DNA of 64,000 bases from Candidatus Micrarchaeota archaeon (GCA_028867115.1 JAGWGY010000001.1:8380-72379); one strand, 5' to 3'; shown: positions 36,521 through 60,766, counted from the stretch's first letter. Numbers and translations are program-made. Notes: generated by a model not told the origin, from the sequence alone.

Positions 36521-36609
36521 TGGGCCCAAGGGGATTTGAACCCCTGACATCTGGCTTTCTTACGGATTGATATAAGACCAGCGCTCTAACCAGGCTGAGC
36601 TATGAGCCC
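36521..36609 (-). tRNA. tRNA-Ile (anticodon UAU) with 14-nt intron at 37/38
   Basis: Minus strand GGGCTCA-TA-GCTC-AGCCTGGTTA-GAGC-G-CTGGT-CTTATA[TCAATCCGTAAGAA]A-GCCAG-ATGTC-AGGGG-TTCAAAT-CCCCT-TGGGCCC-A; 4-bp CTTA/TAAG helix flanked by 3-nt bulges (relaxed BHB); no encoded CCA. Confidence 0.8.
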
Positions 36610-47504: not shown

Positions 47505-48554
47505 ATGGCAGATAAAAAAGACAGATTTATTGTGACTACAGGAGAACCGGTGGGAGTCATCGCTGCGCAGTCGATAGGGGAGCCTGGAACCCAGATGGTC
47601 CTCAGATCGTTCCACTACGCAGGAGTCGCATCATCCATAGCAACGTCTGGTCTGCCAAGACTCGTGGAGATCGTGGACACAAGGAAGAAGCCTGCGACCC
47701 CATTCTCATACGTATACCTGAAGGGCAAGGCTGCAAAGAACTTCGAGGACGCTGAGAAGGTCGTCAAGAAGATAAGCGAAGTGAGGGTAAATGACATCGC
47801 AAGGAGGATACTTGAGAACTTCTCAAAGGGCACGATACTCATCAAGCTCGACGACCAGAGGATGGAGGCGAACGAGCTGACCGCAAAGGGGGTCGCGTCC
47901 AAGATAGAGAAGCTGACAAAAATTGAGTGCAGCGCATCAGAGAACGCAATACTTGTAAAGACCCACACTAAGAACACCAAGCAGATAAGGAGCATGGCCG
48001 TCCAGATAGGAAAGCTCACCGTTAACGGCATAGAGAATGCGGGCAGGGCGGTGATAAAGCAGGACAAGGAGACTGGGGAGTTCTACATTGTAACAAACAA
48101 CAGCAACCTGGTCGGGATACTCGGCATCGAGGATGTGGATTCTTCAAAGATTTACACCAACGACATCTTCGAGATATACAGAGTATTCGGAGTCGAAGCC
48201 GCAAGGAATGCAATCGCAAGGGAACTCGACACAGTGCTGAGGGAACAGGGCATAAACGTGGACAAGAGGCACCTATTCATACTAGCTGACGCAATGACAC
48301 TCTCCGGAGGCATAAAGAACGTCGGAAGGCGCGGTCTGAGCGGCGAGAAGGAGTCAATATTCGCAAGGGCAGCATACGAGGAAACCGTAAAGCACCTGAT
48401 CAACGCAGCGGCTTTCGGGGAAAGGGACGACATGCGCGGCGTAACTGAGAACGTGCTAATAGGCAAGCAGATAATGCTCGGGACCGGGTCAGTCACGCTT
48501 GCAATAAAGAAGGAGGACCTTGCTAAGATCAGCGAGAAGAAGGGAAAGAAATAA
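47505..48554 (+). CDS. rpoA2: RNA polymerase subunit A'' (Rpo1 C-terminal part)
   Basis: 349 aa; [19 protein letters not shown]... Confidence 0.92.
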
Positions 48555-48603: not shown

Positions 48604-48825
48604 ATGAACGAGAGACCATTCGATCTTCTGAACAAGTCAATTGGACAGCAGGTCCTAATTAGGCTGAAGAACGGCACAGACATAAGGGGCAAGATGTCCG
48701 CATTCGACATCCACATGAACCTGGTGTTAGACAACGCGGAGGAGCTTGAGGACGGGAACCTCAAGACAAAGGTGGGCACGATACTTCTGCGCGGCGGGAA
48801 CATCCTCTGGGTCTCCCCTGCCTGA
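48604..48825 (+). CDS. Sm-like archaeal protein (SmAP/LSm)
   Basis: 73 aa; Sm1 (VLIRLKNGTDIRGKMSAFDIHMNLVLDNAEE) and Sm2 (ILLRGGNILWVSP). Confidence 0.88.
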   Translation: MNERPFDLLNKSIGQQVLIRLKNGTDIRGKMSAFDIHMNLVLDNAEELEDGNLKTKVGTILLRGGNILWVSPA

Positions 48826-48880: not shown

Positions 48881-48908
48881 TTGCCCTACGTATCTCTTAT
48901 GTTCGCTT

Positions 48909-48980
48909 GGGCTCCTGGCGCAACGGTAGCGCGCCTGCATGGCATGCAGGAGGTTGCGGGTTCGAATCCCGCGGAGTCCA
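48909..48980 (+). tRNA. tRNA-Ala (anticodon GGC)
   Basis: GGGCTCC-TG-GCGC-AACGGTA-GCGC-G-CCTGC-ATGGCAT-GCAGG-AGGTT-GCGGG-TTCGAAT-CCCGC-GGAGTCC-A; G3:U70 Ala identity pair; 3' end plus trailer (CGCGGAGTCCAGAC, 48970-48983) is the core of three downstream repeats. Confidence 0.9.
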
Positions 48981-48987
48981 GACCTTT

Positions 48988-49596
48988 TTATTTGGTGAAA
49001 TTTATTGATAGCGTTGCAACTCTAGTAAGGTATGCCTCCCAGGAATCTAAAATTGACGAATTGTAAGCTAAAGTCCCATCTAAATTATTTACAATTATAT
49101 TAGATACTTTACTAGATCCGTCAATCTCTACAACGCCCCTACCAGCTATTGAAAAAACCGACATTGGCACGTAGGGACCTAAGGCGTTCAGTTTTGGCAG
49201 CGGAGGTGCGGGTGAGAATGTGGTATTTATTGGTTGCTTGACAACCCAAGGATAACCGGACTGTGATTCTAAATTTGATAGTTGTACAAATTGTTGAAAA
49301 TATGACCTTGCATCATTATCGTCTGTAAATGCCCTATAGTATACACTTATGTCATCAGGTATTGAATCATTAGAATTTATTCTCATAAGCTGCTGGGTGC
49401 AATAAAAGATTTGCCCGGCGTTTGTTGATGTATTAGTGCAATAGGGATTTATCGAAGCCGAATAATTACCATTAATTATCCCGATTTTTGATAAATCAGG
49501 CAAAGGTCGAGGATGATAACTTAAAAAATTAAAGTAGAAAAGTACTGAAATAATTATTATTGCAATAAGCAAAAATACGATAAGTTTTGGATTCAC
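48988..49596 (-). CDS. membrane-anchored hypothetical protein (AT-rich module)
   Basis: 202 aa; N-terminal TM IVFLLIAIIIISVLFYF; N/S/I-rich composition; a 60-nt line in this gene (49081-49140) has about 30% G+C by my count. Confidence 0.5.
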   Translation of the reverse strand: MNPKLIVFLLIAIIIISVLFYFNFLSYHPRPLPDLSKIGIINGNYSASINPYCTNTSTNAGQIFYCTQQLMRINSNDSIPDDISVYYRAFTDDNDARSYFQQFVQLSNLESQSGYPWVVKQPINTTFSPAPPLPKLNALGPYVPMSVFSIAGRGVVEIDGSSKVSNIIVNNLDGTLAYNSSILDSWEAYLTRVATLSINFTK

Positions 49597-49655
49597 ATCA
49601 TCAACTAAATTTTGCGTTTGAATATATAAACCTATAAACTATTATATAAAACACC

Positions 49656-50234
49656 ATGTCAACAAAAACATTCAGATACATCGTTTCCATTTTTAGTATA
49701 TTCATTGGATTATTCTTCGTGCAATCTTCGCCAAATTACAATGTTCTGATTTTTATTTTGGGTATTTTGCTAATAATTGGCGGCGTGATAGTCTCTTTGG
49801 GAACGAGCAATAAACTTGGTGGCTGGCTAGTTATCATTGGGGGGATAATATATTTGTTGGGAAAAGGGCCTGGCATCTTTAGCTCGTTTCCATATTGGCT
49901 CTCAGTCTACGGGCAACCAAATTTATTGTACATGTTTTATAATTTTGGTCAATTAATAGCACCATTCGTCATTGGTGTATTGGTACTCTGGAAAAAATCC
50001 GCAGCGTTTAGGATACTTGGGGGCAGTCTATCTATATTGCTCTTTATCTGGTTAAATATATTCTATAATGGGTTTAGTCCTGGTTGTAAAGCGCCAGATG
50101 TTATGGTGTGGCTGCTAAATTGCTTCTCCGTATATTATGCGTGGGTTTTATTTTTACTCGGGGGTATTGTGATTATTTTGGCAGCTTGTAAACCCATTTT
50201 TAAGCTATTTACTACTAAATACTATCAAAAATAA
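49656..50234 (+). CDS. polytopic membrane protein (AT-rich module)
   Basis: 192 aa, about 6 hydrophobic helices; stop codon lies inside repeat R1 left arm. Confidence 0.5.
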   Translation: MSTKTFRYIVSIFSIFIGLFFVQSSPNYNVLIFILGILLIIGGVIVSLGTSNKLGGWLVIIGGIIYLLGKGPGIFSSFPYWLSVYGQPNLLYMFYNFGQLIAPFVIGVLVLWKKSAAFRILGGSLSILLFIWLNIFYNGFSPGCKAPDVMVWLLNCFSVYYAWVLFLLGGIVIILAACKPIFKLFTTKYYQK

Positions 50235-50280
50235 CCCCAACCCGACGTGGGAAGTTCGCGGAGTCCAGACTTTCTATTTA
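50221..50280 (+). repeat. tRNA-Ala 3'-end-derived direct repeat R1 (att-like)
   Basis: ACTATCAAAAATAACCCCAACCCGACGTGGGAAGTT-CGCGGAGTCCAGAC-TTTCTATTTA; core 50257-50270 identical to 48970-48983. Confidence 0.8.
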
Positions 50281-52478
50281 ACTGTTGACATTTCAGCCAA
50301 CCTACTAAGCAATTGCTGCACATCCTTCGTGCCGTGGAGGTTGAACCGCGCATACGACTGTGCCATCCCTACCCTTATAGAATATGCGCTTTTCGGCAGT
50401 GACTTGAACGTATCCTCGTCAGTATAATCATCGCCTATCGCAAGAATGAAATCGGGGCTGTGCAAATTTATGAAATGCGCCGCTGCTACGCCCTTGTTGA
50501 CGCCTGAGTTCTTAACCTCGATTATCTTGTTCCCCTTACACACCTGTACATCCGCGTTTGCGGTAATCTTACTGAGATTGTCAAAAAGTTCTGAGACTCT
50601 GAGTGATGCAAATTCCGATTCAGACTTTCTATAGTGCCATACAATAGAGAATTCCTTCTCTTCTACAAACGACCCTGGCAGCCTACCTGCGTAGTCGTTT
50701 ATTATGGGCATTATCATCGGCTTCCATTCTGCCGTCAGCGGTCTAATGAGGCGCCAGTCTGCGCCGCGTTCTTTTATAAAAACTCCGTGCTCGGCAACCA
50801 ATGAAACGCCGATTCCCGAAAACCATTTGTCTAGCGTAGCCTTGTCCCTCCCGCTGGTCACAACGACCTCGTTTTTAGGGTCGCTGCACAGTGACCTTAG
50901 CATGTCAAGGGTCTGCTTTGTGGGCGACGCTTTCCTAGGTTCCTCTGTGAATGGGACCATCGTTCCATCGTAATCCAGCAGCAGGAGTGCCTTCCCGGCC
51001 TTCCCATGGTCGGACAGCAAGGCGGCTTCATTGCCGCCAAGAAGCTTTGCATTGAAGACTTCCTGCATCTCCTTAAGCTTTGCAAGCTCCTTCATGAAAT
51101 CATTCCCCCATCTTACTATGTCATATGACCTCACCCTCTCCTGCATCGCAATCATTCGGCGCATCTGCTCCTCTATGGGCATGGTGAGCGCCGTTTCCAG
51201 CGCATTGCATATCTCGCCGGGGTGGTTTGGGTTGACCATCACCGCTTCCCCGAGTTCTTTGGATGCTCCGGCCATCTCGCTGAGCACGAGAACGCCGGGG
51301 GATTCTAGCTTGCTTGCAACATATTCTTTTGCGATAAGGTTCATGCCGTCACGCAAAGGCGTCACCAATGCCACATCTGCCATATTAAATAGAGCGGAAA
51401 GGGTGCTCGAATCGAGGAACCTATACTGATATGTGATAGGTGCCCAGTCGATTGCACCGAACCTGCCGTTTATTCTCCCTACCTTCTCATCGATCGCCAT
51501 CTTCAGCTTCTTGTATTCCCTGACTCCCTCCCTTGATGGCACGACCACTAGTACAAGGCGGACCCTTCCCCGCATCTGCGGGTGCCTCTCCAAGAAAAGA
51601 TCATAGCCGTTTAGCCTGTTCAGGATTCCCTTTGTGTAATCCAGCCTGTCTATCGAGAAGATTATCTTCGCATCACCTATGCTCTTTTTGAGTTTGTCCT
51701 TCTCCTTTGCGACAGAATCGCTCCTGGAGAGCGCCTGCAAATTGCCGAAATCTATGCCCATTGGGAATGCATCAACCCTCTTTAGCTCGGAGTCCGGCCC
51801 CTCTATGTATCCAAGATTGCTGTCATATCCTAGCAACCTTGAGACGCTAGTCACAAAATCCTGCATGTAATCGTACGTGTGGAACCCTATCAGGTCTGCG
51901 CCCAAAAGCCTCGACAGCAGAGCCCTGCCCCATCCGCCCGGCAGGAGCCTGAAGACTTCATAAGACGGGAACGGTATATGCAGGAAGAATCCTATCCTTG
52001 CTTGCGGCCTGCGCCCCTTTAGCATGGCGGGCAGCAGCATCAGGTGGTAGTCGTGGATCCAGACAATGTCGCCAGGCTGCACGATGCCGGCCACTTCCTC
52101 GCAAAACCGCTCGTTAACCTTGCGGTAGGCTTCCCATTCGTCATCGTCGTAATTGGCGTACTCTGTAAAGTAATGGAAGAGTGGCTGCAGGGTGCTGTTG
52201 CAAAAGCCGTTGTAGAAGCCCTCATAGTCCTTTTCGGCAAGGAAGACCGGGGAACATTTGGACTTGCCTGCCATCCTCCTTATGTCCTTCCTGTCGCTAT
52301 CGTCATCAAATACCCCGCCCGGCCACCCCACCCAGAGGTAATCATCGATTTTTGCAGCCTTGAGATAGGATTTTATTCCACTTGCAAGCCCTCCAGCCGC
52401 TTCGGAAACGGCGATCTTCCCATCAGGGCCCTTTGTGAAAGATAGCGGCAGCCTGTTGGACACTATTATGTACCTCAT
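50274..52478 (-). CDS. bifunctional trehalose-6-phosphate synthase/phosphatase (OtsA-OtsB fusion)
   Basis: GT20 motifs [39 protein letters not shown]; C-terminal [12 protein letters not shown] ... [10 protein letters not shown]; ATG 52478 preferred (GTG 52487 in ORF track). Confidence 0.9.
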
Positions 52479-52500
52479 CCATGCCACCGTCGCACTTTTC

Positions 52501-52524
52501 CTGAGCCAGAACTATCTGGCTCAG
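52501..52524. other. perfect 10-bp inverted repeat (hairpin) between the DUF1059 stop and the ots start
   Basis: CTGAGCCAGA-ACTA-TCTGGCTCAG; overlaps the stop codon at 52521-52523; 22 nt upstream of the ots ATG on the minus strand. Confidence 0.7.
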
Positions 52525-52694
52525 GCGTCCTTTATTGCAGCGCTGACTTTTGCCTTAGTGGCATCATCAAGCTGCGCCATGTTGTGGGCGACCCTGGCAT
52601 GGTCTGCGATCTTCGGCATCAGCTCCTCCACAGTTGCCCCCTCTGCCGTAAAATCACATGCAAAACCTATGTCCCTGCACACAAACTTCTTCAT
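52521..52694 (-). CDS. DUF1059-like small protein
   Basis: 57-aa ORF below the ORF-track cutoff, hand-translated: MKKFVCRDIGFACDFTAEGATVEELMPKIADHARVAHNMAQLDDATKAKVSAAIKDA; matches the DUF1059 pattern (F-x-C-x-D-x-G-x-x-C-x-F ... H-A-x-x-x-H). Confidence 0.6.
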   Translation of the reverse strand: MKKFVCRDIGFACDFTAEGATVEELMPKIADHARVAHNMAQLDDATKAKVSAAIKDA

Positions 52695-52760
52695 GACAAT
52701 CGTAAGGCTTGGCGAATCGGACGTATATATCGCTTTTCGATCTGGGACAGAATTGCGCGC

Positions 52761-53174
52761 TCAGCCGAGCAGCATGTCTCGCATCTTGAGCAGCGCCAGG
52801 TACACCTGGCCGTCGTTGCGGAGCCTCTCTATGCTCTTGTAACCGAGGTGGATCCCGCTGATGGAGGAGAAAAGCGTGAGCATATATGACATCCCCCTGT
52901 TGCTCATGCCCATAAGCTGCTGCACCAGGAGTATTATCAGCTTCTGCTCAAGGTCCAGGCTCGGCTTCCTGCCCCTTCCCAAACTTGGCCTAACCGATAT
53001 CGATGCGTCACGTATTGTTGGCATGAGTATCCTAATGGTCTTCTTTATCTGGCTTGACCTTTTCTGCCTATAAGTCCTCCAGTCGCTTATTGCATACCTC
53101 GGAAGCACCCGCTCCCTGACTATGGACTCTATCTCGCATAGCAGCGCGTTGATGCCTATCAGAGCTTCTTCCAT
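52761..53174 (-). mobile_element. IS-type transposase N-terminal (HTH) fragment, catalytic domain absent
   Basis: 137 aa; GRGRKPSLDLEQKLIILLVQQLMGMSNRGMSYML resembles the HTH region preceding DDE domains in IS4/IS5-like transposases; ORF stops after it. Confidence 0.4.
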
Positions 53175-53269
53175 GGTTCCTATGCGCTAGGAAAAATTAA
53201 ATTAGTTATGTCCAAATGCGCGGCAAGCAATGCATAAACTTTTATGATTTTGGCTGGATAATAGAATCG

Positions 53270-54187
53270 ATGCAGATGCCTGCTCAAAAGCCAAACCCCC
53301 ACATCGGGTACTTCGTTCTATTCCTAGTCGCGCTCGCACTGGGCATATCCCTAGCGCTGCTCTCCGGCAAGGTGCTTGCGGGGGTGGGCATAACCTCGCC
53401 TCAGTATCTGGAGTATGCTGATATCCTCATAACCGTGGCGTTCGGCTATGCCGCGCTCAAGCTGCTCTCAGATTCGATAATCGAGTATGGGAAGAGGAGG
53501 CCGCGGATAGACGAGAGGCTGCTAGCAAAAGTCGTGCGCATCATAGGGTATGTGATAATAGTGCTGTTGGTGATGTCGATCTTTAGGATAGACCTGACCG
53601 GGGTGCTGATAAGCGCGGGCTTTTTGGGCATAGTGATAGGTCTTGCTGCTCAGTCCACATTGGGCAACCTCTTTGCAGGCATCTCGATGATGGCCGCAAA
53701 GCCGTTTGCCAACGGGGACAGGGTAACTTTCTCCTCATGGCAGTACGGCGCGCTGCCCCCATCCTACGCACACAGGTTCCTCAGGCTTGGCTTTTCAGGC
53801 ATCATAGAGGAGATAGACCTTATGTATACGAGGCTGAGGCAGGATGACGGCACAGTGCTGTATGTGCCAAACGGCGTGATGAATGGCGCGGCAATAATAA
53901 ACTACTCGGTATCTGATGTCATAGACGTGAATTTCAGGCTTGAGCTCCCTCTGGAGGCCGACTTTGCGTCTTTTAGGTCAAAAGTGCTCAAGGAGATTGA
54001 CAGGCACAGCAGGCTTCACAAGGCCATAAAGGGAAAGCCCGAAGTCATAATAACCGACATAGCCTCACAGATGTACGGGGTGGATGTGATAGCTAGAAGC
54101 GAGATACGCAGCGAAGCGTACGTAAAATCCGAAATAGCTGCTATCGTGCTGCGCATAGCCTCAAAAACCATGGAGGGGGGAAAATAG
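53270..54187 (+). CDS. mscS: small-conductance mechanosensitive channel (MscS family)
   Basis: Three TM helices then LGNLFAGISMMAAKPFANGDRVTF; start at ATG 53270 (ORF track 53216). Confidence 0.8.
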   Translation: MQMPAQKPNPHIGYFVLFLVALALGISLALLSGKVLAGVGITSPQYLEYADILITVAFGYAALKLLSDSIIEYGKRRPRIDERLLAKVVRIIGYVIIVLLVMSIFRIDLTGVLISAGFLGIVIGLAAQSTLGNLFAGISMMAAKPFANGDRVTFSSWQYGALPPSYAHRFLRLGFSGIIEEIDLMYTRLRQDDGTVLYVPNGVMNGAAIINYSVSDVIDVNFRLELPLEADFASFRSKVLKEIDRHSRLHKAIKGKPEVIITDIASQMYGVDVIARSEIRSEAYVKSEIAAIVLRIASKTMEGGK

Positions 54188-54204
54188 GGAATACGAACAG
54201 CATT

Positions 54205-54272
54205 TACTATCAAATGATATCAAAAATAACCCCAACCTGACGTGAGAGGTCCGCGGAGTCCAGACCTTTTTA
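54205..54272 (+). repeat. tRNA-Ala 3'-end-derived direct repeat R2 (att-like)
   Basis: TACTATCAAATGATATCAAAAATAACCCCAACCTGACGTGAGAGGTC-CGCGGAGTCCAGAC-CTTTTTTAA; core 54252-54265. Confidence 0.8.
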
Positions 54273-54318
54273 ACCCAAAAGCTTAAAATATCATAACTGA
54301 CGTAATATTAGTGACTAA

Positions 54319-54528
54319 ATGGGCAGAAAATACACGATAATCATAACCAAGGGAGAAGTCGCATATGTCGCTTATTGTGAGGAGCTCGGAATAGCGAGCC
54401 AGGGAAAGAGCGTAAAGGAGGCAAGGAAGAACATAAAGGAGGCAATAGAACTATACACTGAAGAGGCAAAAGACTCGAAGCTCGCTAAGTCAGCTTTGCC
54501 CATAGTGACAACGATAAGCGTGGGATGA
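54319..54528 (+). CDS. hicB: HicB-like antitoxin (UPF0150 fold)
   Basis: 69 aa; YTIIITKGEVAYVAYCEELGIASQGKSVKEARKNIKEAIELY. Confidence 0.65.
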   Translation: MGRKYTIIITKGEVAYVAYCEELGIASQGKSVKEARKNIKEAIELYTEEAKDSKLAKSALPIVTTISVG

Positions 54529-54532
54529 TGAG

Positions 54533-54760
54533 ATGGGCAAACTTCCCATCGTTTCGGCGCTAGATGTTGTAAAGGTGCTCAGAAAGAACGGCTTTAGCAT
54601 ATCAAGGCAGAGGGGAAGCCACATAATACTTATAAAATTTGTTGATGACAAGAAACGGATAGTTGTCGTCCCTAACCACAGGCAGATTGACCCTGGTACA
54701 CTGCTTTCCATAATAGCCCAATCTGGCATGCTAAAAGACGAATTCCTTGATTCTTTGTGA
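54533..54760 (+). CDS. hicA: HicA-family mRNA-interferase toxin
   Basis: 75 aa; VVKVLRKNGFSISRQRGSHIIL...VVVPNHRQIDPGTLLSIIAQSGM. Confidence 0.75.
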   Translation: MGKLPIVSALDVVKVLRKNGFSISRQRGSHIILIKFVDDKKRIVVVPNHRQIDPGTLLSIIAQSGMLKDEFLDSL

Positions 54761-54773
54761 GGATGATAACATT

Positions 54774-54832
54774 CACTACCAAAAATAACCCAAACCTGAC
54801 GTGGGAGGTTCGCGGAGTCCAGACCTTTTTAT
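54774..54832 (+). repeat. tRNA-Ala 3'-end-derived direct repeat R3 (att-like)
   Basis: CACTACCAAAAATAACCCAAACCTGACGTGGGAGGTT-CGCGGAGTCCAGAC-CTTTTTAT; core 54811-54824. Confidence 0.8.
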
Positions 54833-54865
54833 GATTTTGAGTTCTAGGGGGGAAATAATCAGACT

Positions 54866-55087
54866 TTAATTACAGTTTGAGCGAGTTGGTGAGGAGAATT
54901 TTGGATAGCTATAATTGAACAGTACAACATTGTGAAAATTACATTCTAGTTCTTGTGTTGTCAAAAACACCGCGTAAGCATATGCCGTTTGAATACCATA
55001 AATGTATTTGGTCATAATATAATTTGAGTAGATTCCAGATATTACGAGCACCAATGATACTGCCAAAAATATCCCGTAAGCAGACAT
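54866..55087 (-). CDS. small membrane protein, last gene of pilus operon
   Basis: 73 aa; N-terminal hydrophobic helix; abuts the upstream gene. Confidence 0.4.
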   Translation of the reverse strand: MSAYGIFLAVSLVLVISGIYSNYIMTKYIYGIQTAYAYAVFLTTQELECNFHNVVLFNYSYPKFSSPTRSNCN

Positions 55088-55471
55088 TCAATCACCAACT
55101 TCAATGCAGAGCGTGCTATTCCTTTTGCCATAATAAATACATGTTTGTACCAAAGGTGAGTTGACATAGCCTAAGCTAATATTAGGTGCCTTTGCTGCAA
55201 TATTTACTTTGTATAATTTGTTATATATCAGAAATAAGTTGCTTAAACATGTAGAATTACTTGATGATAGGTTCTCAACACATAACTTCGTAGAGCCATT
55301 AAAATCTAGCTGATTGATAAGATCATATATGGCAAAGTTGCTTATCAATGCACTCTTCTGTGTAAAGAGGGTTAAAGTTGCAGAGTTCATGGCATTGGTA
55401 GTATAAGTAATAGCAAAAATTGCCAGCAAGATAGAGGTAACTGATTCGGCCACTGCAAATTGCGCCTTCAT
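55088..55471 (-). CDS. pilin-like protein (degenerate class III signal)
   Basis: 127 aa; MKA-QFAVAESVTSILLAIFAITY. Confidence 0.5.
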   Translation of the reverse strand: MKAQFAVAESVTSILLAIFAITYTTNAMNSATLTLFTQKSALISNFAIYDLINQLDFNGSTKLCVENLSSSNSTCLSNLFLIYNKLYKVNIAAKAPNISLGYVNSPLVQTCIYYGKRNSTLCIEVGD

Positions 55472-56737
55472 TTAAGCACCTTTTACGTTAATATAGGATC
55501 CAAGGTATTGAAGAGTCATATTTTCTATGCTAAGCCCATTAAAAGATGCATTTATGATGTATGAGAAAGGATATTGTGAGTAGCAAGTATAATTCTCTAT
55601 GTTGAAGGTACAGCCTTTGCCTAGAATTCCTGAGCTATTGAGCAGCTTATTTACTGTATTAATGTAGCTAAATCCCATGGATTCCAAAGCAGATGCGATA
55701 TCTGGCGAGACTTCTGATCCATTGTACGCACTAAGTTGGGAATATAGGGAGTTCTTATCGGATAGGTATGCCTGATAATTTGAGGAATTTACGGGTGAGA
55801 TCCCTTTGGGACCATCGAGGAAGTTTTGGTTTATTTGTTGTGCAATACCGCTCGCATTCTCTACTGACGCATTTCCTACATCCAGATTGTTTAATGTAAG
55901 CCTGCTGGATTTATTGTTCGAGATATTAGAGCGGATAGTAAAATTTTCTGAGGCTAATTTCAAAGTGAAGTTATAATGCAACGAGGCGCCTGCTTGCCCA
56001 GCGGACATATCCTGGTAGCCACTATCTACAGGGATAAAGCAGTAGGTTTCGGTATAGTAGCTACTTGTTTGGTAACAAACGTCTGAGAATACTGATACCG
56101 ACCACTCTCCACCAGAACCGCACTGTTGTCGTGTAGGCCCCCACCCATTTGCATAGGTACAGTGGGAGAATACCTGCATTTGAATTATGTTGCCGGCATC
56201 TAATAGTGGATATACGTATGACTCGTTTCTATTTAGTATAGTCGCTGTTAGCTGATTAGTCTGCAGTTGTATACCTTGTTTAGTTCCATAGGTGGAATAT
56301 GTAGTGTTTATTGTTCTTCTAATGTTATTGCACGTGGTCGTCGAATTTACGCTTATTTGGTTATACCCCATATTAAGAGGAGTAAAATAGATATCAAAAA
56401 CCTCAATGCCGCTTAAGGTGGAATTTAGCGAATCTTGTGAAAAAAGTACAGATTTAGAGATAAAATTTAGTCTTATTGACCCATTACACCCATATGCAAC
56501 GAGCCGCATTATGTTTGGGTTATCAAGAACTGCGCTCTGTGGTACAAAAACCCTTACCTCCATATTCTGCGGGTAAATAATTTGTGGACCGTATGTAGAT
56601 GCGTTAAAAGAACTAAAATTATTGAACTTAGATTGGTTAGAATGGATCGTTTGGCTGTAAGATGAGACCATTATAACAATCAGTACACTTATCGTGCTTG
56701 CAGCAAGTAGGAACTCTACACTAGCCTGCATTTTCAT
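55472..56737 (-). CDS. large pilin-like protein (class III signal plus about 390-aa N/S/T-rich domain)
   Basis: 421 aa; MKM-QASVEFLLAASTISVLIVIMV. Confidence 0.6.
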   Translation of the reverse strand: MKMQASVEFLLAASTISVLIVIMVSSYSQTIHSNQSKFNNFSSFNASTYGPQIIYPQNMEVRVFVPQSAVLDNPNIMRLVAYGCNGSIRLNFISKSVLFSQDSLNSTLSGIEVFDIYFTPLNMGYNQISVNSTTTCNNIRRTINTTYSTYGTKQGIQLQTNQLTATILNRNESYVYPLLDAGNIIQMQVFSHCTYANGWGPTRQQCGSGGEWSVSVFSDVCYQTSSYYTETYCFIPVDSGYQDMSAGQAGASLHYNFTLKLASENFTIRSNISNNKSSRLTLNNLDVGNASVENASGIAQQINQNFLDGPKGISPVNSSNYQAYLSDKNSLYSQLSAYNGSEVSPDIASALESMGFSYINTVNKLLNSSGILGKGCTFNIENYTCYSQYPFSYIINASFNGLSIENMTLQYLGSYINVKGA

Positions 56738-57101
56738 GACTTAACACCAGGATTATGCTCTTTCCATTTAGAGTGACTATTCGGCAAACCCCCATAGTTT
56801 CACAGCCAGCTGGAGAAGAGTTGGAAAGCTGTAGGATTTGCGATTGTATCAGGTTTTCTGAGGAGTAATTACTAATGAAAGAAATTAATCCAGAATTATT
56901 TTCTGGATAACTATCGATAACAGAAGCGATTATCTGCGAGATAGTGTAGAGCTTGAGCTGCATCACACTGTTTGTGGAAAGAGAGGATAACGAGAGCGTT
57001 TGCATATGCCAGGTGTAAAGTAATAGAAGCACTGCTGTCGAGACTATTGGCAAAGAGATAGTAAGATCTAGTGAAATGAGTGCACCAATAATTTTTGACA
57101 T
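56721..57101 (-). CDS. minor pilin-like protein
   Basis: 126 aa; MSKIIGA-LISLDLTISLPIVSTAVLLLL. Confidence 0.45.
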   Translation of the reverse strand: MSKIIGALISLDLTISLPIVSTAVLLLLYTWHMQTLSLSSLSTNSVMQLKLYTISQIIASVIDSYPENNSGLISFISNYSSENLIQSQILQLSNSSPAGCETMGVCRIVTLNGKSIILVLSHENAG

Positions 57102-57310
57102 GAAATCAACCTTAAATCAACTACACAACTGGCACACGAGGCGGCCAATTCTTCGGTATATGTAGCAGCGCTACAGGACGCATTCTTTTCAATCCCAATA
57201 ACTTTAGTTGCTCCAAAGTGGAGTTTTGAGAGCAGCAACAGCGAGGATAATGCAAATAACATAACTATTGACATACCTACAATAACCTCTAAACTAATCT
57301 GAGCTCGCAT
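57068..57310 (-). CDS. type IV pilin-like protein (QxSxE)
   Basis: 80 aa; MRA-QISLEVIVGMSIVMLFALSSLLLL. Confidence 0.6.
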   Translation of the reverse strand: MRAQISLEVIVGMSIVMLFALSSLLLLSKLHFGATKVIGIEKNASCSAATYTEELAASCASCVVDLRLISCQKLLVHSFH

Positions 57311-57693
57311 TACGACACCCTGTTTAGTATGTAATATTCTCCCTTGTAGGAAATGCTTAGGACCGATCCCCCTCCATCAGGACAAAATACCCCCTTAGGG
57401 ATAGAAATGCCATCTGCAATGCTTAGATTTCCATAAATTGTGGAAAGGACGCCAGATTTCACGTATGCACTGCACATCCCGCTTGGGAGATATGCCGAGA
57501 ACTCCTGGTAGGCTACTCCTGTGAGTGCTGCAGAGTTTAATTTAGAGACCATGGATGAGACCTGGTATTCACTGAGCAGGTAGGTGACGTGCACCATCCC
57601 AACACGTAGCGTGTTTGCAATGAACAGCAGTGATACGCCCGAGAGGGAGATGTAAGCAAGTACCTCAAGTGAGAGCTGCGCCCTCATCATCAC
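57310..57693 (-). CDS. type IV pilin-like protein (QxSxE)
   Basis: 127 aa; MMMRA-QLSLEVLAYISLSGVSLLFI. Confidence 0.6.
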   Translation of the reverse strand: MMMRAQLSLEVLAYISLSGVSLLFIANTLRVGMVHVTYLLSEYQVSSMVSKLNSAALTGVAYQEFSAYLPSGMCSAYVKSGVLSTIYGNLSIADGISIPKGVFCPDGGGSVLSISYKGEYYILNRVS

Positions 57694-57944
57694 TACACCA
57701 CATTAGATGAAAGCGAGGATAGCTCATGGGATATTGCACCGGATATGCTCATGTTGCTCCCATTTACCATTATATTTGAAGTCGCGGCACCTTTCAGCTT
57801 CACCACCATGGCCAAGGCTATCGCTATTACAAGACTAGCCGCTGCAAGCATCATTATGTACTCCAATGATCCTTGCCCCTTCTTTGACCTCGCCACTGCG
57901 AGCAACGCTTTTGCTTCCAAAAGGAATCTTATTCTATTTTCCAT
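57693..57944 (-). CDS. small type IV pilin (candidate major pilin)
   Basis: 83 aa from internal ATG 57944: MENRIRFLLEAKALLAVARSKKG-QGSLEYIMMLAAASLVIAIALAMVV; the longer ORF-track form overlaps the upstream gene. Confidence 0.6.
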   Translation of the reverse strand: MENRIRFLLEAKALLAVARSKKGQGSLEYIMMLAAASLVIAIALAMVVKLKGAATSNIMVNGSNMSISGAISHELSSLSSNVV

Positions 57945-57952
57945 TTTCCCAC

Positions 57953-58606
57953 CTATATTACATAAGAAGAAAAGCCAAAGGATGCAGATTGCAATGCATA
58001 TGCTATGCCCGCTAAGGGGGCAACATATTGCAGAATCTCGGAAATTCGTAGCCAAGGCTTGATTAGGATTCTGTTTATGCAAAGGACAATTATGATGTAG
58101 AGCATGCTTATCGATCTTATACCCCATGTCGTCACGGCTTTGCCAGTTCCAATCAATGAGCTGGAAGCTATACTTGATGCAATTCCGCTGAATAATGGGA
58201 AGAAAAGGATTACACCTATCACTGACAGTGTCTGCATCCCACTTACTTTGGCGTTCATCATGTTCCTAAGTTCGCTCTTCTGCAATTGTAAGGAGTGGAA
58301 ATCTTCCAGATTTTTCTCTATTTCAACCCCATTAGATGCACCTAAATGAAGTATTTTCAGAAGATTGTACATTTCCGCCCCGAATTTTTGTGGTATTTCT
58401 GCGCCAAAGTCGGACATCCTCCAACGTTTTGCGAGAACACATAGTGTTTCGTATTTAACATCATTAGAGACTGCCGCCTCGAGCGCCTTTATTGCAGAAT
58501 GCGAGGCCCTATAGTTATAGAGTACGCTTGAGCTGAGGGAGATTATTTCGGACAGGCTATCGCTATTTGCATTGATTAATACGGATGATCTAGACCACAT
58601 TTTCAA
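57953..58606 (-). CDS. pilus platform membrane protein, half 2 (single T2SSF/TadC-like domain)
   Basis: 217 aa; helical cytoplasmic N-part then 3 TM segments; follows half 1 with a 17-nt overlap. Confidence 0.5.
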   Translation of the reverse strand: MKMWSRSSVLINANSDSLSEIISLSSSVLYNYRASHSAIKALEAAVSNDVKYETLCVLAKRWRMSDFGAEIPQKFGAEMYNLLKILHLGASNGVEIEKNLEDFHSLQLQKSELRNMMNAKVSGMQTLSVIGVILFFPLFSGIASSIASSSLIGTGKAVTTWGIRSISMLYIIIVLCINRILIKPWLRISEILQYVAPLAGIAYALQSASFGFSSYVI

Positions 58607-59276
58607 TTAATCTCCTCGATAACGCAGTAACGCTTGTAGCATAGACAAAAGGCAGTACAATTAACAGCCCAATTGACAACCCGATAAGGCTAATGCTCGT
58701 TTGGCTGATAACAGTCGAACCAATATACCCAAAAATGAGAAATGAGGGCAATATTGCCGATAAAAACATGCTAATTGTAGAATAGCGCTGAATGGAATCT
58801 GATGCTGTTGATAGCCGCGCCTTTCGTTTTTGTAAAGAGGAGACAACAAATCTGCTTACTTTATCATATAAATCTCCAGAAGTGGGGATTGTGTTTTCAC
58901 CCCCAATAACCTCTATGAATTCTGCGTTTATTGCATTAAGGAGCGTATCCCCCAGGCGGATCCTGTTCTTTATCCTAATTAGGTTTGGTGGGCTGCTTGC
59001 CCCGAAAGACCTTTCTACCATCTCTTTTGAGGTTGCATTGCGATATTTGTAATAGATGATAGAGGATAGGAACTGCAGGACTTGGCCTTTAAGTATTGCT
59101 TTTTGGTAGAGGTCTGCAAGCAATCCCATGGCCCTTAACAGGAATAGCAGGAGAAATGCGCAGATTAGGAGGATATCGGTTTCAAGAAAGAGGCTTGTTA
59201 TCCCATTAATTACGACTATCAAAAAACAGACTAGGAGCGAAAGTGCAAGTGCGCTAATTAATTGATGATATTTCAT
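58590..59276 (-). CDS. pilus platform membrane protein, half 1 (single T2SSF/TadB-like domain)
   Basis: 228 aa; TM-helical-TM topology; ATGA overlap with the ATPase gene. Confidence 0.5.
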   Translation of the reverse strand: MKYHQLISALALSLLVCFLIVVINGITSLFLETDILLICAFLLLFLLRAMGLLADLYQKAILKGQVLQFLSSIIYYKYRNATSKEMVERSFGASSPPNLIRIKNRIRLGDTLLNAINAEFIEVIGGENTIPTSGDLYDKVSRFVVSSLQKRKARLSTASDSIQRYSTISMFLSAILPSFLIFGYIGSTVISQTSISLIGLSIGLLIVLPFVYATSVTALSRRLIENVV

Positions 59277-60766
59277 TTTTGTAACCCATATTGGTGTATA
59301 TATTCTACCAGTTCGATGGTAGCTGTAGTACCGCCAGACAGCTTCTTTAGGAAATCTGCGCGCTTTCGGAGCTCCTTGAGCGCCTGTGATTTAGAAACTG
59401 ACTTTTTCTTTGAATAGACTTCAATAATTTTTGATTCTGAGAGTGCTTTTTGATCGACTGCGGCATTTAAGGCCACCTCATTTGTGCTTAGCATATCATC
59501 ACCGATTTTTATGCCCCCTCCGAGAATTTCTGCCCTGCTTAGCCATTTGTACTCTGTAATCCCTGTTACCAATCGTGATCCGAACCCATTATGGGTCATC
59601 TGTACGGATATATCTAGAGAACTTAATGACTCCTGCTGCACGCTCATCGGATTAACCATGAGTCGCTTTATTACAGATATTCCCGCCTCGCTGCTGTGGA
59701 TAGTTGCTAGGAAAGGAACGCCAAAGTTTGCGCCAGTGAAGAGTTCCCGCGTCTCTTCGCCACGCAGCTCCCCGACCACCAGAAGGTCTGGGCGCATCCG
59801 AAGCGAGTTTATTACCTGGGACCTAACGTCCACACCTTTCCCGTGCCTGAACCCATTCAAAGCGACTACGCTCTGCACATTGGGATAGAACTTGAGCTCG
59901 TTTACGTCCTCCTCTATGGTTATAACCCTGCTGTGTGCTGGCGCTAATGCAATAAGAGAGCTGAGTAATGTCGTTTTGCCGCTTGCTGGCGCGCCGGAAA
60001 TAAGAATGCTTGCGCCACTCTCTATTGCAATCCACAAGTAAGCTGCAGAATCATAATTGATAGTAGAGGTTTGCAGCAAACGAACGATGTTGGACTCTTT
60101 CCTCCCTCCCATCCTTATTGTGGCACATGCCCCGTTTACAGCATAAGGCCTAAGCTGTGCGTGGATCCTAGCATCTGCTACCTGGACATCTATTACAGGA
60201 GTTGACTCGTTTATTTCAGCATCGCAATCGTAGATTAGCCTATTAATGGCACTGCGGAATTCTGTCTCTCCGCAAAATTGCAGATTTGTGACGCACCTGC
60301 CATATTTTGAGTGGTAGATTGAGATCGCAGAAGTTGGGGAGTTGATTTCTATTTCCTCTATATTGACCTTATCCTCCATCAGTATCCCGATAGGCCCATA
60401 GCCGATGGTGTCGTGTGCAACAATCTCTGCGAGTTTTCTGGCATTTTGAAAAGGCATGGCAGAGGAGAGTTCTGCGACTGCAATCTGCTTTGCACGCTCA
60501 AAATCTTCAGGAGTTATAGTACTTTTTGAAGAGAGTTCGTCCACTACTCTCCCTTTTGCAAAACCGGCTGCTTTAATCTCTGATTGTGCAAACTGCGCCT
60601 GGTCATATCCCACGAGATACTGTGGAATTTTTCCAGTGCGGCAAATACAGCGTTTAATCGGAAGGTCTACTACCTCTTCTATAGGGCCATGTTCTGTGGA
60701 ATAAATCGAGAATCCAAGTTTAGAATAAGGTTTGGGCTTCTGCGGTTCTTTTCTGAACGAAAACAT
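59273..60766 (-). CDS. type IV filament assembly ATPase (GspE/VirB11/ArlI-PilB superfamily)
   Basis: 497 aa; Walker A ISGAPASGKTT, Walker B/Asp box PDLLVVGELRGEE, His box ATIHS. Confidence 0.85.
   Translation of the reverse strand: MFSFRKEPQKPKPYSKLGFSIYSTEHGPIEEVVDLPIKRCICRTGKIPQYLVGYDQAQFAQSEIKAAGFAKGRVVDELSSKSTITPEDFERAKQIAVAELSSAMPFQNARKLAEIVAHDTIGYGPIGILMEDKVNIEEIEINSPTSAISIYHSKYGRCVTNLQFCGETEFRSAINRLIYDCDAEINESTPVIDVQVADARIHAQLRPYAVNGACATIRMGGRKESNIVRLLQTSTINYDSAAYLWIAIESGASILISGAPASGKTTLLSSLIALAPAHSRVITIEEDVNELKFYPNVQSVVALNGFRHGKGVDVRSQVINSLRMRPDLLVVGELRGEETRELFTGANFGVPFLATIHSSEAGISVIKRLMVNPMSVQQESLSSLDISVQMTHNGFGSRLVTGITEYKWLSRAEILGGGIKIGDDMLSTNEVALNAAVDQKALSESKIIEVYSKKKSVSKSQALKELRKRADFLKKLSGGTTATIELVEYIHQYGLQK

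Follow-up and report, generated by a model that had tools for sequence, protein, structure and literature searches.

A 64,000-nt stretch of a Candidatus Micrarchaeota archaeon (DPANN) genome (GCA_028867115.1, JAGWGY010000001.1:8380-72379; hereafter the window, with positions counted from its first letter) carries, directly behind a tRNA-Ala(GGC) gene, what we read, with a probability of about 0.6, as a tandem array of small cassettes that are bounded by repeats, have no integrase and accreted at the 3' end of that tRNA gene, their anchor. The largest of the three cassettes in the window, module 2, holds a trehalose-synthesis gene (otsAB), a DUF1059 gene, an open reading frame (ORF) of 137 amino acids (aa) and a gene for an MscS-family mechanosensitive channel. 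About 64-80 kb of the genome was available for analysis. Its gene content identifies the source as archaeal, since an rpoB-rpoA'-rpoA''-Sm-tRNA-Ala block precedes the array and the closest genomes found are Candidatus Micrarchaeota metagenome-assembled genomes (MAGs), with rpoA'' 80-83% identical.

The array runs from the core at the tRNA through module 1, arm and core, module 2, arm and core, and module 3, arm and core, to the chromosomal flank. Its anchor and repeats are as follows.

48908-48981, plus strand: tRNA-Ala(GGC), the anchor of the array (ARAGORN; Rfam tRNA, 65.6 bits)
50207-50277, plus strand: R1, arm and core, closing module 1 on its right and bounding module 2 on its left
54202-54272, plus strand: R2, arm and core, the right end of module 2
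54761-54831, plus strand: R3, arm and core, the outermost repeat, adjoining the conserved chromosomal flank

The 14-nt core CGCGGAGTCCAGAC is present in four exact copies in the window, at the tRNA-Ala(GGC) 3' end and in R1, R2 and R3; a search allowing up to two mismatches has a chance expectation of 0.45. Core identity reaches 21-22 nt, ending in CCTTTTTA, in three of the four copies (tRNA, R2 and R3). At the tRNA the core (48970-48990, CGCGGAGTCCAGACCTTTTTA) consists of the last 12 nt of the gene and the 9 nt downstream of it, and the last 22 nt of R2 (54251-54272) are identical to 48969-48990. To the left of the core, R1-R3 have in common an arm of ~45 nt, CAAAAATAACCCnAACCnGACGTGnGAnGTn, which is not tRNA sequence; estimates across the repeats place the arm at ~45-55 nt and the whole arm-plus-core site at ~75 bp. 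The arm can also be written CAAAAATAACCCnAACCnnACGTnnGAnGTnCGCGGAGTCCAGAC, and a 45-nt arm-plus-core pattern returned three matches in the window against 0.00 expected. A fifth core copy, R0, ends an additional cassette (module 0) in the near-identical contig L015, and 47 columns are invariant in the alignment of four repeat copies.

Beyond CCTTTTTA, the sequences right of the cores have nothing in common, so that every unit has one recombination-type site, which lies at its end away from the tRNA. Where a unit begins with a minus-strand ORF, the stop codon of that ORF lies inside a core tail (48988-48990, within the TTTTTA of the core, for module 1; 50274-50276, within the R1 tail, for otsAB), and the last plus-strand genes of units end inside the arm or at most 14 nt before it. 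All array ORFs of at least 100 aa are either named cargo genes or overlapping antisense frames. An earlier reading made from the sequence alone had placed a fused OtsA-OtsB of 737 aa, a DUF1059 ORF, a truncated IS-type fragment (the 137-aa ORF) and an MscS channel exactly between two att-like repeats; all four ORFs are indeed present there, bounded by R1, in which otsAB stops, and R2, which begins 14 nt after the end of mscS, and the core copies and arm matches likewise confirm module 2 as a repeat-bounded unit on a tRNA-associated array.

Each repeat copy has an oligo-T run on both strands, which suggests that the repeats may serve as bidirectional transcription terminators insulating the cassettes. 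A short stem followed by oligo-T lies on the minus strand at 50235-50252 and 54791-54812, with T5 on the plus strand in the CCTTTTTA core tails. Folded as single-stranded DNA, R0-R3 do no better than shuffled sequences (z -0.11 to +0.74), and an Rfam scan matched the tRNA and none of the repeats; the arm was on these grounds rejected as a structured or attC-like element and as a known RNA.

The site behind the tRNA varies among related species. Four species-level relatives (contigs L007, L008, L009 and L010) all keep the rpoB-A'-A''-Sm-tRNA-Ala block, with tRNA-Ala downstream of rpoA''-Sm, and in all four the similarity ends exactly at the tRNA 3' end. Modules 1-3 are absent downstream of tRNA-Ala in L007, L009 and L010, the contigs that continue beyond it; the L008 contig ends ~100 nt past the tRNA, and there too synteny is lost at the tRNA. 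In L009, ~2.8 kb of unrelated genes (pentapeptide-repeat protein, methyltransferase and metallophosphoesterase) lie between the tRNA and the pilus-like locus that forms the right flank, where synteny picks up again (tblastx, L009 15699-20836). In L010 (11402-13968), a Micrarchaeales MAG, an ORF matching Phage_integrase reads straight out of the tRNA-Ala 3' end, with no in-frame start codon for at least ~80 codons after the tRNA, and may be a split integrase of the type found in Sulfolobus spindle-shaped viruses (SSV). Genes for an N6/N4 methylase and a restriction endonuclease of the EcoO109I type come after it, and the far end of the element lies off the contig; in a sister species, then, an element with an integrase makes use of the same tRNA. 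The sequence-only reading had proposed a presence/absence check across relatives and had named synteny in all of them as an outcome that would speak against its account; since the site varies, with modules 1-3 missing from three relatives, that outcome was not observed.

Variation is also seen between near-identical strains. Two contigs from other MAGs, L015 (GCA_028867695.1) and L016 (GCA_028867775.1), are 99.65-99.84% identical to the window over the left flank and 99.7% (L015) and 98.8% (L016) identical across the array. Both have the array of the window plus one extra cassette, module 0, which lies between the tRNA and module 1, has its own arm and core (R0) at its end, and is missing from the window between 48990 and 48991. 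When the window is compared with L015 by BLAST, the two alignments overlap by exactly the 21-nt core 48970-48990, as would be expected if recombination at the core had added or removed one cassette. Presence/absence polymorphism at the putative attachment (att) site was accordingly found at two levels, across the four species and as a 1,457-bp cassette indel between strains 99.7% identical. No homologues of module 0 were found at the tRNA-Ala site of L007, L009 or L010.

The second strain-level difference concerns module 2 itself. L016 and the window show 65 mismatches to the right of the tRNA, of which 63 fall within 50454-54251 (module 2 and its right repeat), compared with 12 mismatches in 7,260 nt of left flank and one in the ~1.2 kb of module 1; the flank rate predicts ~6 mismatches in module 2, against the 63 observed (Poisson P ~2e-41). 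Strain-level divergence inside module 2 is thus ~10 times that of the flanks or module 1. An excess confined in this way implies a separate history for module 2 as a unit, such as replacement by a diverged allele; it suggests either that the cassette was exchanged whole for another allele or that strains were mixed in the MAG consensus.

Integrase-less units bounded by att sites are termed cis-mobilizable elements (CIMEs). The cassettes show the anatomy of such elements, with att sites on both sides and no recombination or transfer genes inside, and direct repeats of the tRNA end flank the inserted DNA as in tRNA-targeting integrative elements. An integrase of their own, the other hallmark of the latter, was not found: none of the array ORFs matches Phage_integrase in Pfam, and tblastn with two Micrarchaeota integrases matched the window at the tRNA overlap and nowhere else. 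A fragmentary integrase of the SSV type was rejected as unsupported. R3 contains an ATG-initiated ORF (54763-54834) that might have represented int(N) in the arm; this frame has a stop codon at the position of the Trp codon in R2 and R0, has no start in R1, and differs from the reading frame of the L010 integrase, and nothing resembling int(C) follows any core.

We envisage a unit as tightly packed cargo followed by a single ~75-bp site at its tRNA-distal end, with the core duplicating the tRNA 3' end. Cassettes would enter and leave by site-specific recombination between their own arm-plus-core site and a resident core, most likely with catalysis in trans by a tyrosine recombinase that targets tRNA genes, of a type also present in L010 and in L011 (a contig carrying an OtsAB homologue, described below); homologous recombination between cores would provide a fallback route for cassette loss. 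More tentatively, and in our judgement with the odds against it, the locus could represent a previously undescribed integron-like platform for cassette exchange in Micrarchaeota, built on a tRNA 3' end, double-stranded arm-core sites and a tyrosine recombinase acting in trans, in which cassettes are swapped between co-existing strains. This extension would include the complete stress-protection operon and a stabilising toxin-antitoxin pair, with ~75-bp double-stranded sites replacing attC hairpins, in a minimal-genome host.

Several observations weigh against the array reading as a whole or in its parts. No recombinase acting on the arm-core sites was found. The arm motif has no true match in IMG/VR or in the Joint Genome Institute (JGI) metagenomes, where two patterns each gave zero matches or three chance matches, the latter having neither arm similarity nor a tRNA; the arm-core family is consequently known from one species-level cluster only, made up of the window, the two MAG contigs L015 and L016, and L030, which covers module 3 onwards. 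Phage and plasmid databases gave matches to short otsA motifs and to the tRNA, and to nothing else. Nor was an empty tRNA-Ala site seen right next to the pilus flank. The module 0 indel could equally well reflect a deletion in which 21-nt repeats recombined homologously or slipped, and a MAG consensus can mix strains, so that the divergence of module 2 could be inflated or localised by assembly. Lastly, trehalose also serves in protection against acid, heat and desiccation and in carbon storage, and these other roles make osmoadaptation one possible reading only.

Three other explanations were weighed against the array reading. According to the first, the modules are fossils of gene capture, left by full-size integrative plasmids or viruses whose integrase and replication genes have been deleted, so that the array is now immobile; the module 0 difference would then be a simple repeat-mediated deletion. 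We consider this possible and, that deletion included, rather unlikely. Tandem integration and integrated elements lacking an integrase are documented in archaea (PMC8371274; PMC6563490), an integrase-bearing element sits at tRNA-Ala in L010, and no active recombinase was found in the window. Yet all four cassettes, module 0 included, are devoid of any integrase remnant, and coding sequence abuts the cores on both sides, which would require four separate precise deletions. The arms, moreover, are still well conserved, with their 47 invariant columns, and both the indel between 99.7%-identical strains and the divergence confined to module 2 argue for recent turnover of whole units.

A second explanation, that the region is native, vertically inherited chromosome and that the repeats arose by local duplication of the region downstream of the tRNA, unrelated to mobility, would suit the core-like GC and lineage-typical genes of module 2. 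It is largely refuted, and we regard it as very improbable: the region is missing at tRNA-Ala in the three related species whose contigs pass the tRNA, the neighbouring cassettes have a GC content of 36-43%, every unit ends in the common arm, which is not tRNA sequence, a cassette-sized indel falls at the core, and homologues of OtsAB occur in three other contexts. The weakest, an integron or a cluster of attC sites lacking an integron-integrase (CALIN), in which an IntI encoded elsewhere would act on the repeats as attC sites in folded single-stranded form, shares with the locus a tandem array of cargo followed by one site, including a toxin-antitoxin cassette, and is reported from archaeal MAGs (PMC9668308), yet scarcely deserves credence given that the repeats fold no better than shuffled sequences and have no R''/R' core sites with a stem of attC length (the sole AAC...GTT pair is 12 nt apart), that the common core is a tRNA gene 3' end, not an attI beside intI, and that no intI-like gene is adjacent, the array starting at the tRNA after rpoA''-Sm.

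Within the array, module 2 comprises a putative three-gene operon and a divergent channel gene.

50274-52487, minus strand: otsAB, bifunctional trehalose-6-phosphate synthase/phosphatase (Pfam, NF011071)
52521-52694, minus strand: DUF1059 small protein, 57 aa (Pfam, E=5.4e-19), the middle gene of the putative 137aa-DUF1059-otsAB operon
52761-53174, minus strand: all-alpha stand-alone protein of 137 aa encoded by the leading gene of the operon, homologous to the N-terminal domain of IS5-like (insertion sequence) transposases
53216-54187, plus strand: MscS-family mechanosensitive channel (Pfam), divergent from the operon

The otsAB product has a Glyco_transf_20 domain (PF00982, E=7.7e-141) and a Trehalose_PPase domain (PF02358, E=1.8e-53), and matches over its full length the NCBIfam model for bifunctional trehalose-6-phosphate synthase/phosphatase (NF011071; 957.5 bits against a cut-off of 634). 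On this domain evidence it belongs to the bifunctional family, combining a GT20 domain with an HAD-IIB phosphatase domain, and the corresponding activity is predicted. The protein is 737 aa long from a GTG codon and 734 aa from the ATG start of the NCBI record; P0001 is 100% identical to it, and MDE1846501.1 is the OtsAB accession of the MAG to which the window belongs. All four module 2 genes are intact in the three strains, and of the 33 otsAB codons that differ from L016, 21 are synonymous; as part of the array reading, the module 2 genes are taken to be under purifying selection.

Homologues of OtsAB form a tight group at 63-69% identity, the next ones being at 57% or below. Three members of the group were examined; all lie in archaeal gene contexts, in three different neighbourhoods, and two of these loci are 0.7-4 kb downstream of tRNA-Arg genes, one of them adjoining an integrase. 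The latter (L011 3693-10232) lies 4.2 kb downstream of tRNA-Arg(CCG), and the other (L013 7229-10202) 0.7 kb downstream of tRNA-Arg(GCG), the homologues at the two loci being 65-66% identical to OtsAB. A carbamoyltransferase compared between the window and L011 as a gauge of genome relatedness was 30% identical, and the two copies are apparent paralogues, which makes them uninformative for this purpose. Several of the otsAB and sucrose-synthase loci of L001, L011, L013, L017 and L018 lie 0.7-4 kb from tRNA genes, and a search around these five with k-mers of 10-14 nt found no tRNA-end repeats.

The MscS-family protein matches MS_channel_2nd (PF00924) with 52.2 bits (cut-off 20.2) and MS_channel_1st (PF21088) with 23.8 bits, just over the cut-off of 23.1. 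Its scores on the NCBIfam equivalog models are far under their cut-offs, which marks it as a member of the family and not as an orthologue of Escherichia coli MscS. Translation probably starts at 53276, giving a protein of 303 aa and leaving the first 20 codons of the 323-aa ORF untranslated, because homologues are ~295-300 aa long and the gene is called with 303 aa in L015; this start leaves a divergent promoter region of ~100 nt in common with the 137-aa gene. The closest relatives are 46-62% identical, and those that are labelled are mostly Micrarchaeota.

The GC content of module 2 is 51.7% (GC3 63-72%) against 51.4% for the core genome, and its composition is indistinguishable from that of the core genome. 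The sequence-only reading had regarded the cassette as horizontally acquired stress adaptation. This interpretation is supported in part: the site varies among relatives and OtsAB homologues occur in three other contexts; a distant donor is not indicated, given the core-like GC and the labelled relatives, which are mostly Micrarchaeota for MscS and all Micrarchaeota for the 137-aa protein. On this evidence, exchange within the Micrarchaeota lineage would fit better, and module 2 probably circulates there.

The 137-aa ORF has no direct Pfam or NCBIfam match. A word-based search gave orthologues of 137-146 aa in three clusters, at 54-56% identity, all labelled relatives being Micrarchaeota, and an exhaustive profile search with the family returned 147 homologues. 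Some of these are 321-409 aa long, and in them the profile aligns with residues 1-140 (E 6e-29 to 1e-5). Of ten long homologues tested, two match DDE_Tnp_1, and nine give weak matches, below cut-off, to NF033579, the IS5 transposase model (E 6e-14 to 7e-3). In the alignment, the ~330-aa homologues contain the DDE-type blocks GDGTGY, SIRLD and SE..DKR, which are missing from the short proteins: the 137-aa ORF and its orthologues stop before these blocks and hence have no DDE catalytic domain. The AlphaFold2 model is all-alpha (pLDDT 76), and Foldseek found no significant structural neighbour for it.

An orphan origin for this ORF was rejected on the profile-search link to IS5-like transposases, and a pseudogene remnant on its conservation and synteny. 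The gene lies only 66 nt from DUF1059, and in both other lineages DUF1059 comes next after its orthologue, with a different sugar-synthesis gene behind the two. In L017-L019 (8001-11111) that gene encodes a sucrose-phosphate synthase/phosphatase fusion of 752 aa and lies close to tRNA-Val and a VapBC pair; in L020 (254-2715; also L021) the 137-146-aa/DUF1059 pair precedes a GT4 glycosyltransferase. Beside the sucrose-synthase operon, between the VapBC pair and tRNA-Val(GAC), L017 (12327-13187) and L018 differ by insertion of an insertion sequence (DDE_Tnp_1). Judged from its conservation, the 137-aa gene is a stand-alone derivative with stable neighbours, not a decaying fragment. The earlier description of this ORF as a truncated IS-type helix-turn-helix fragment was thus right about its ancestry in an IS5-like transposase N-terminal domain and wrong in treating it as decaying. 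We infer that its product acts as a DNA-binding regulator of the 137aa-DUF1059-otsAB operon.

DUF1059 adjoins solute-synthesis genes in two other lineages and an MscS homologue in another. In the latter (L024/L025, 5776-6900), it lies directly upstream of an MscS homologue of 54% identity. This recurrence of DUF1059 beside solute synthases and MscS elsewhere lends independent support to the pairing of solute synthesis with a release valve that had been proposed from the window alone. The operon of transposase-derived DNA-binding protein, DUF1059 and otsAB would make trehalose, and the divergent MscS would act as the release valve, the two together serving in osmotic or other stress. As proteins, OtsAB and MscS are not unusual; what is new is the way they are packaged, together with their conserved partners, DUF1059 and the transposase-derived protein.

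The neighbouring cassettes and the flanks of the array are listed below.

47505-48554: rpoA'', after rpoB and rpoA' and upstream of the array
48604-48825: Sm protein, between rpoA'' and tRNA-Ala(GGC)
48991-50206: module 1, with two membrane/secreted ORFans (48988-49596, minus strand; 49656-50234, plus strand); GC 35.8%
54273-54760, plus strand: module 3, with a HicB-like antitoxin (54319-54528) and a HicA toxin (54533-54760); GC 43.2%
L015 13489-14953, minus strand: module 0 (1,457 bp), with a 146-aa ORF and a 256-aa S-adenosylmethionine-dependent methyltransferase; GC 38.3%
54866-60766, minus strand: type IV pilus-like locus, the conserved right flank (Pfam: class III signal-peptide pilin, T2SSE ATPase)

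The GC values of modules 0, 1 and 3 compare with 51.4% for the core genome. Neither module 1 ORFan has a Pfam or NCBIfam match. In module 3, HicA_toxin scores 66.1 bits against a cut-off of 27, and the 69-aa protein encoded upstream matches HicB_lk_antitox and UPF0150, both below cut-off; the two genes constitute a HicAB type II toxin-antitoxin pair, which may stabilise the array, a role that toxin-antitoxin cassettes play in chromosomal integrons (work cited in PMC9668308). The pilus-like locus directly abuts the array and has a low GC content (42%). Its proteins are ~30-60% identical to those of L009, against 80-87% for the RNA polymerase subunits, which marks it as a fast-evolving surface-structure locus. 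Elsewhere in the window (36521-36609, minus strand), ARAGORN calls an 89-nt tRNA-Tyr with the odd anticodon ATA, which could be a mis-called archaeal tRNA or one that contains an intron.

DPANN archaea are host-dependent organisms with very small genomes, and little is understood of the ways in which they acquire and reshuffle accessory functions. The locus offers a concrete route, in which small cassettes behind a tRNA gene turn over as whole units between strains 99.7% identical and have no integrase of their own. One such cassette delivers a complete module, a compatible-solute synthase together with a release valve. It also provides a first functional context for DUF1059 and for a domesticated IS5-transposase N-terminal domain, both of which recur in Micrarchaeota by trehalose, sucrose-phosphate or glycosyltransferase genes and MscS. 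The missing integrase is the most interesting feature of the array. Were the recombinase identified, the site could become a natural gene-delivery site for a group without genetic tools.

Among known systems, SSV-type gene capture (She et al., 2001, cited in PMC8371274; PMC7253208) resembles the array in that tRNA-integrated archaeal elements are trapped and their cargo becomes chromosomal, and differs in having int(N)/int(C) border fragments, which the array does not. Integrons and CALINs, including archaeal ones (PMC9668308), are like the array in their compact cargo with an end site, tandem arrangement, toxin-antitoxin cassette and non-adjacent recombinase; unlike theirs, the sites of the array are not attC hairpins, its anchor is a tRNA 3' end, and its cassettes hold two to four genes in both orientations. 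Array cassettes presumably have their own promoters.

The tycheposon islands of Prochlorococcus (bioRxiv 10.1101/2020.12.28.424599) provide another parallel, in that a streamlined genome carries niche cargo stacked beside a tRNA and separated only by partial tRNA copies, in populations that are heterogeneous for the elements. Tycheposons carry their own integrase and replication modules, whereas none of the four array units does, and the array host is a DPANN archaeon. The CIMEs and islands of the ICESt1/ICESt3 family in Streptococcus thermophilus differ from the array in several respects: the array is in an archaeon, its units are much smaller (0.56-4 kb), its target is a tRNA, and no helper with matching att sites was identified for it. 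Members of that family are, like the cassettes of the array, att-bounded and without recombination genes of their own; they stack at one site by recombination into a resident attL or attR, a tandem accretion attributed in PMC5357655 to Pavlovic 2004 and Bellanger 2011, and can be mobilised by a related integrase.

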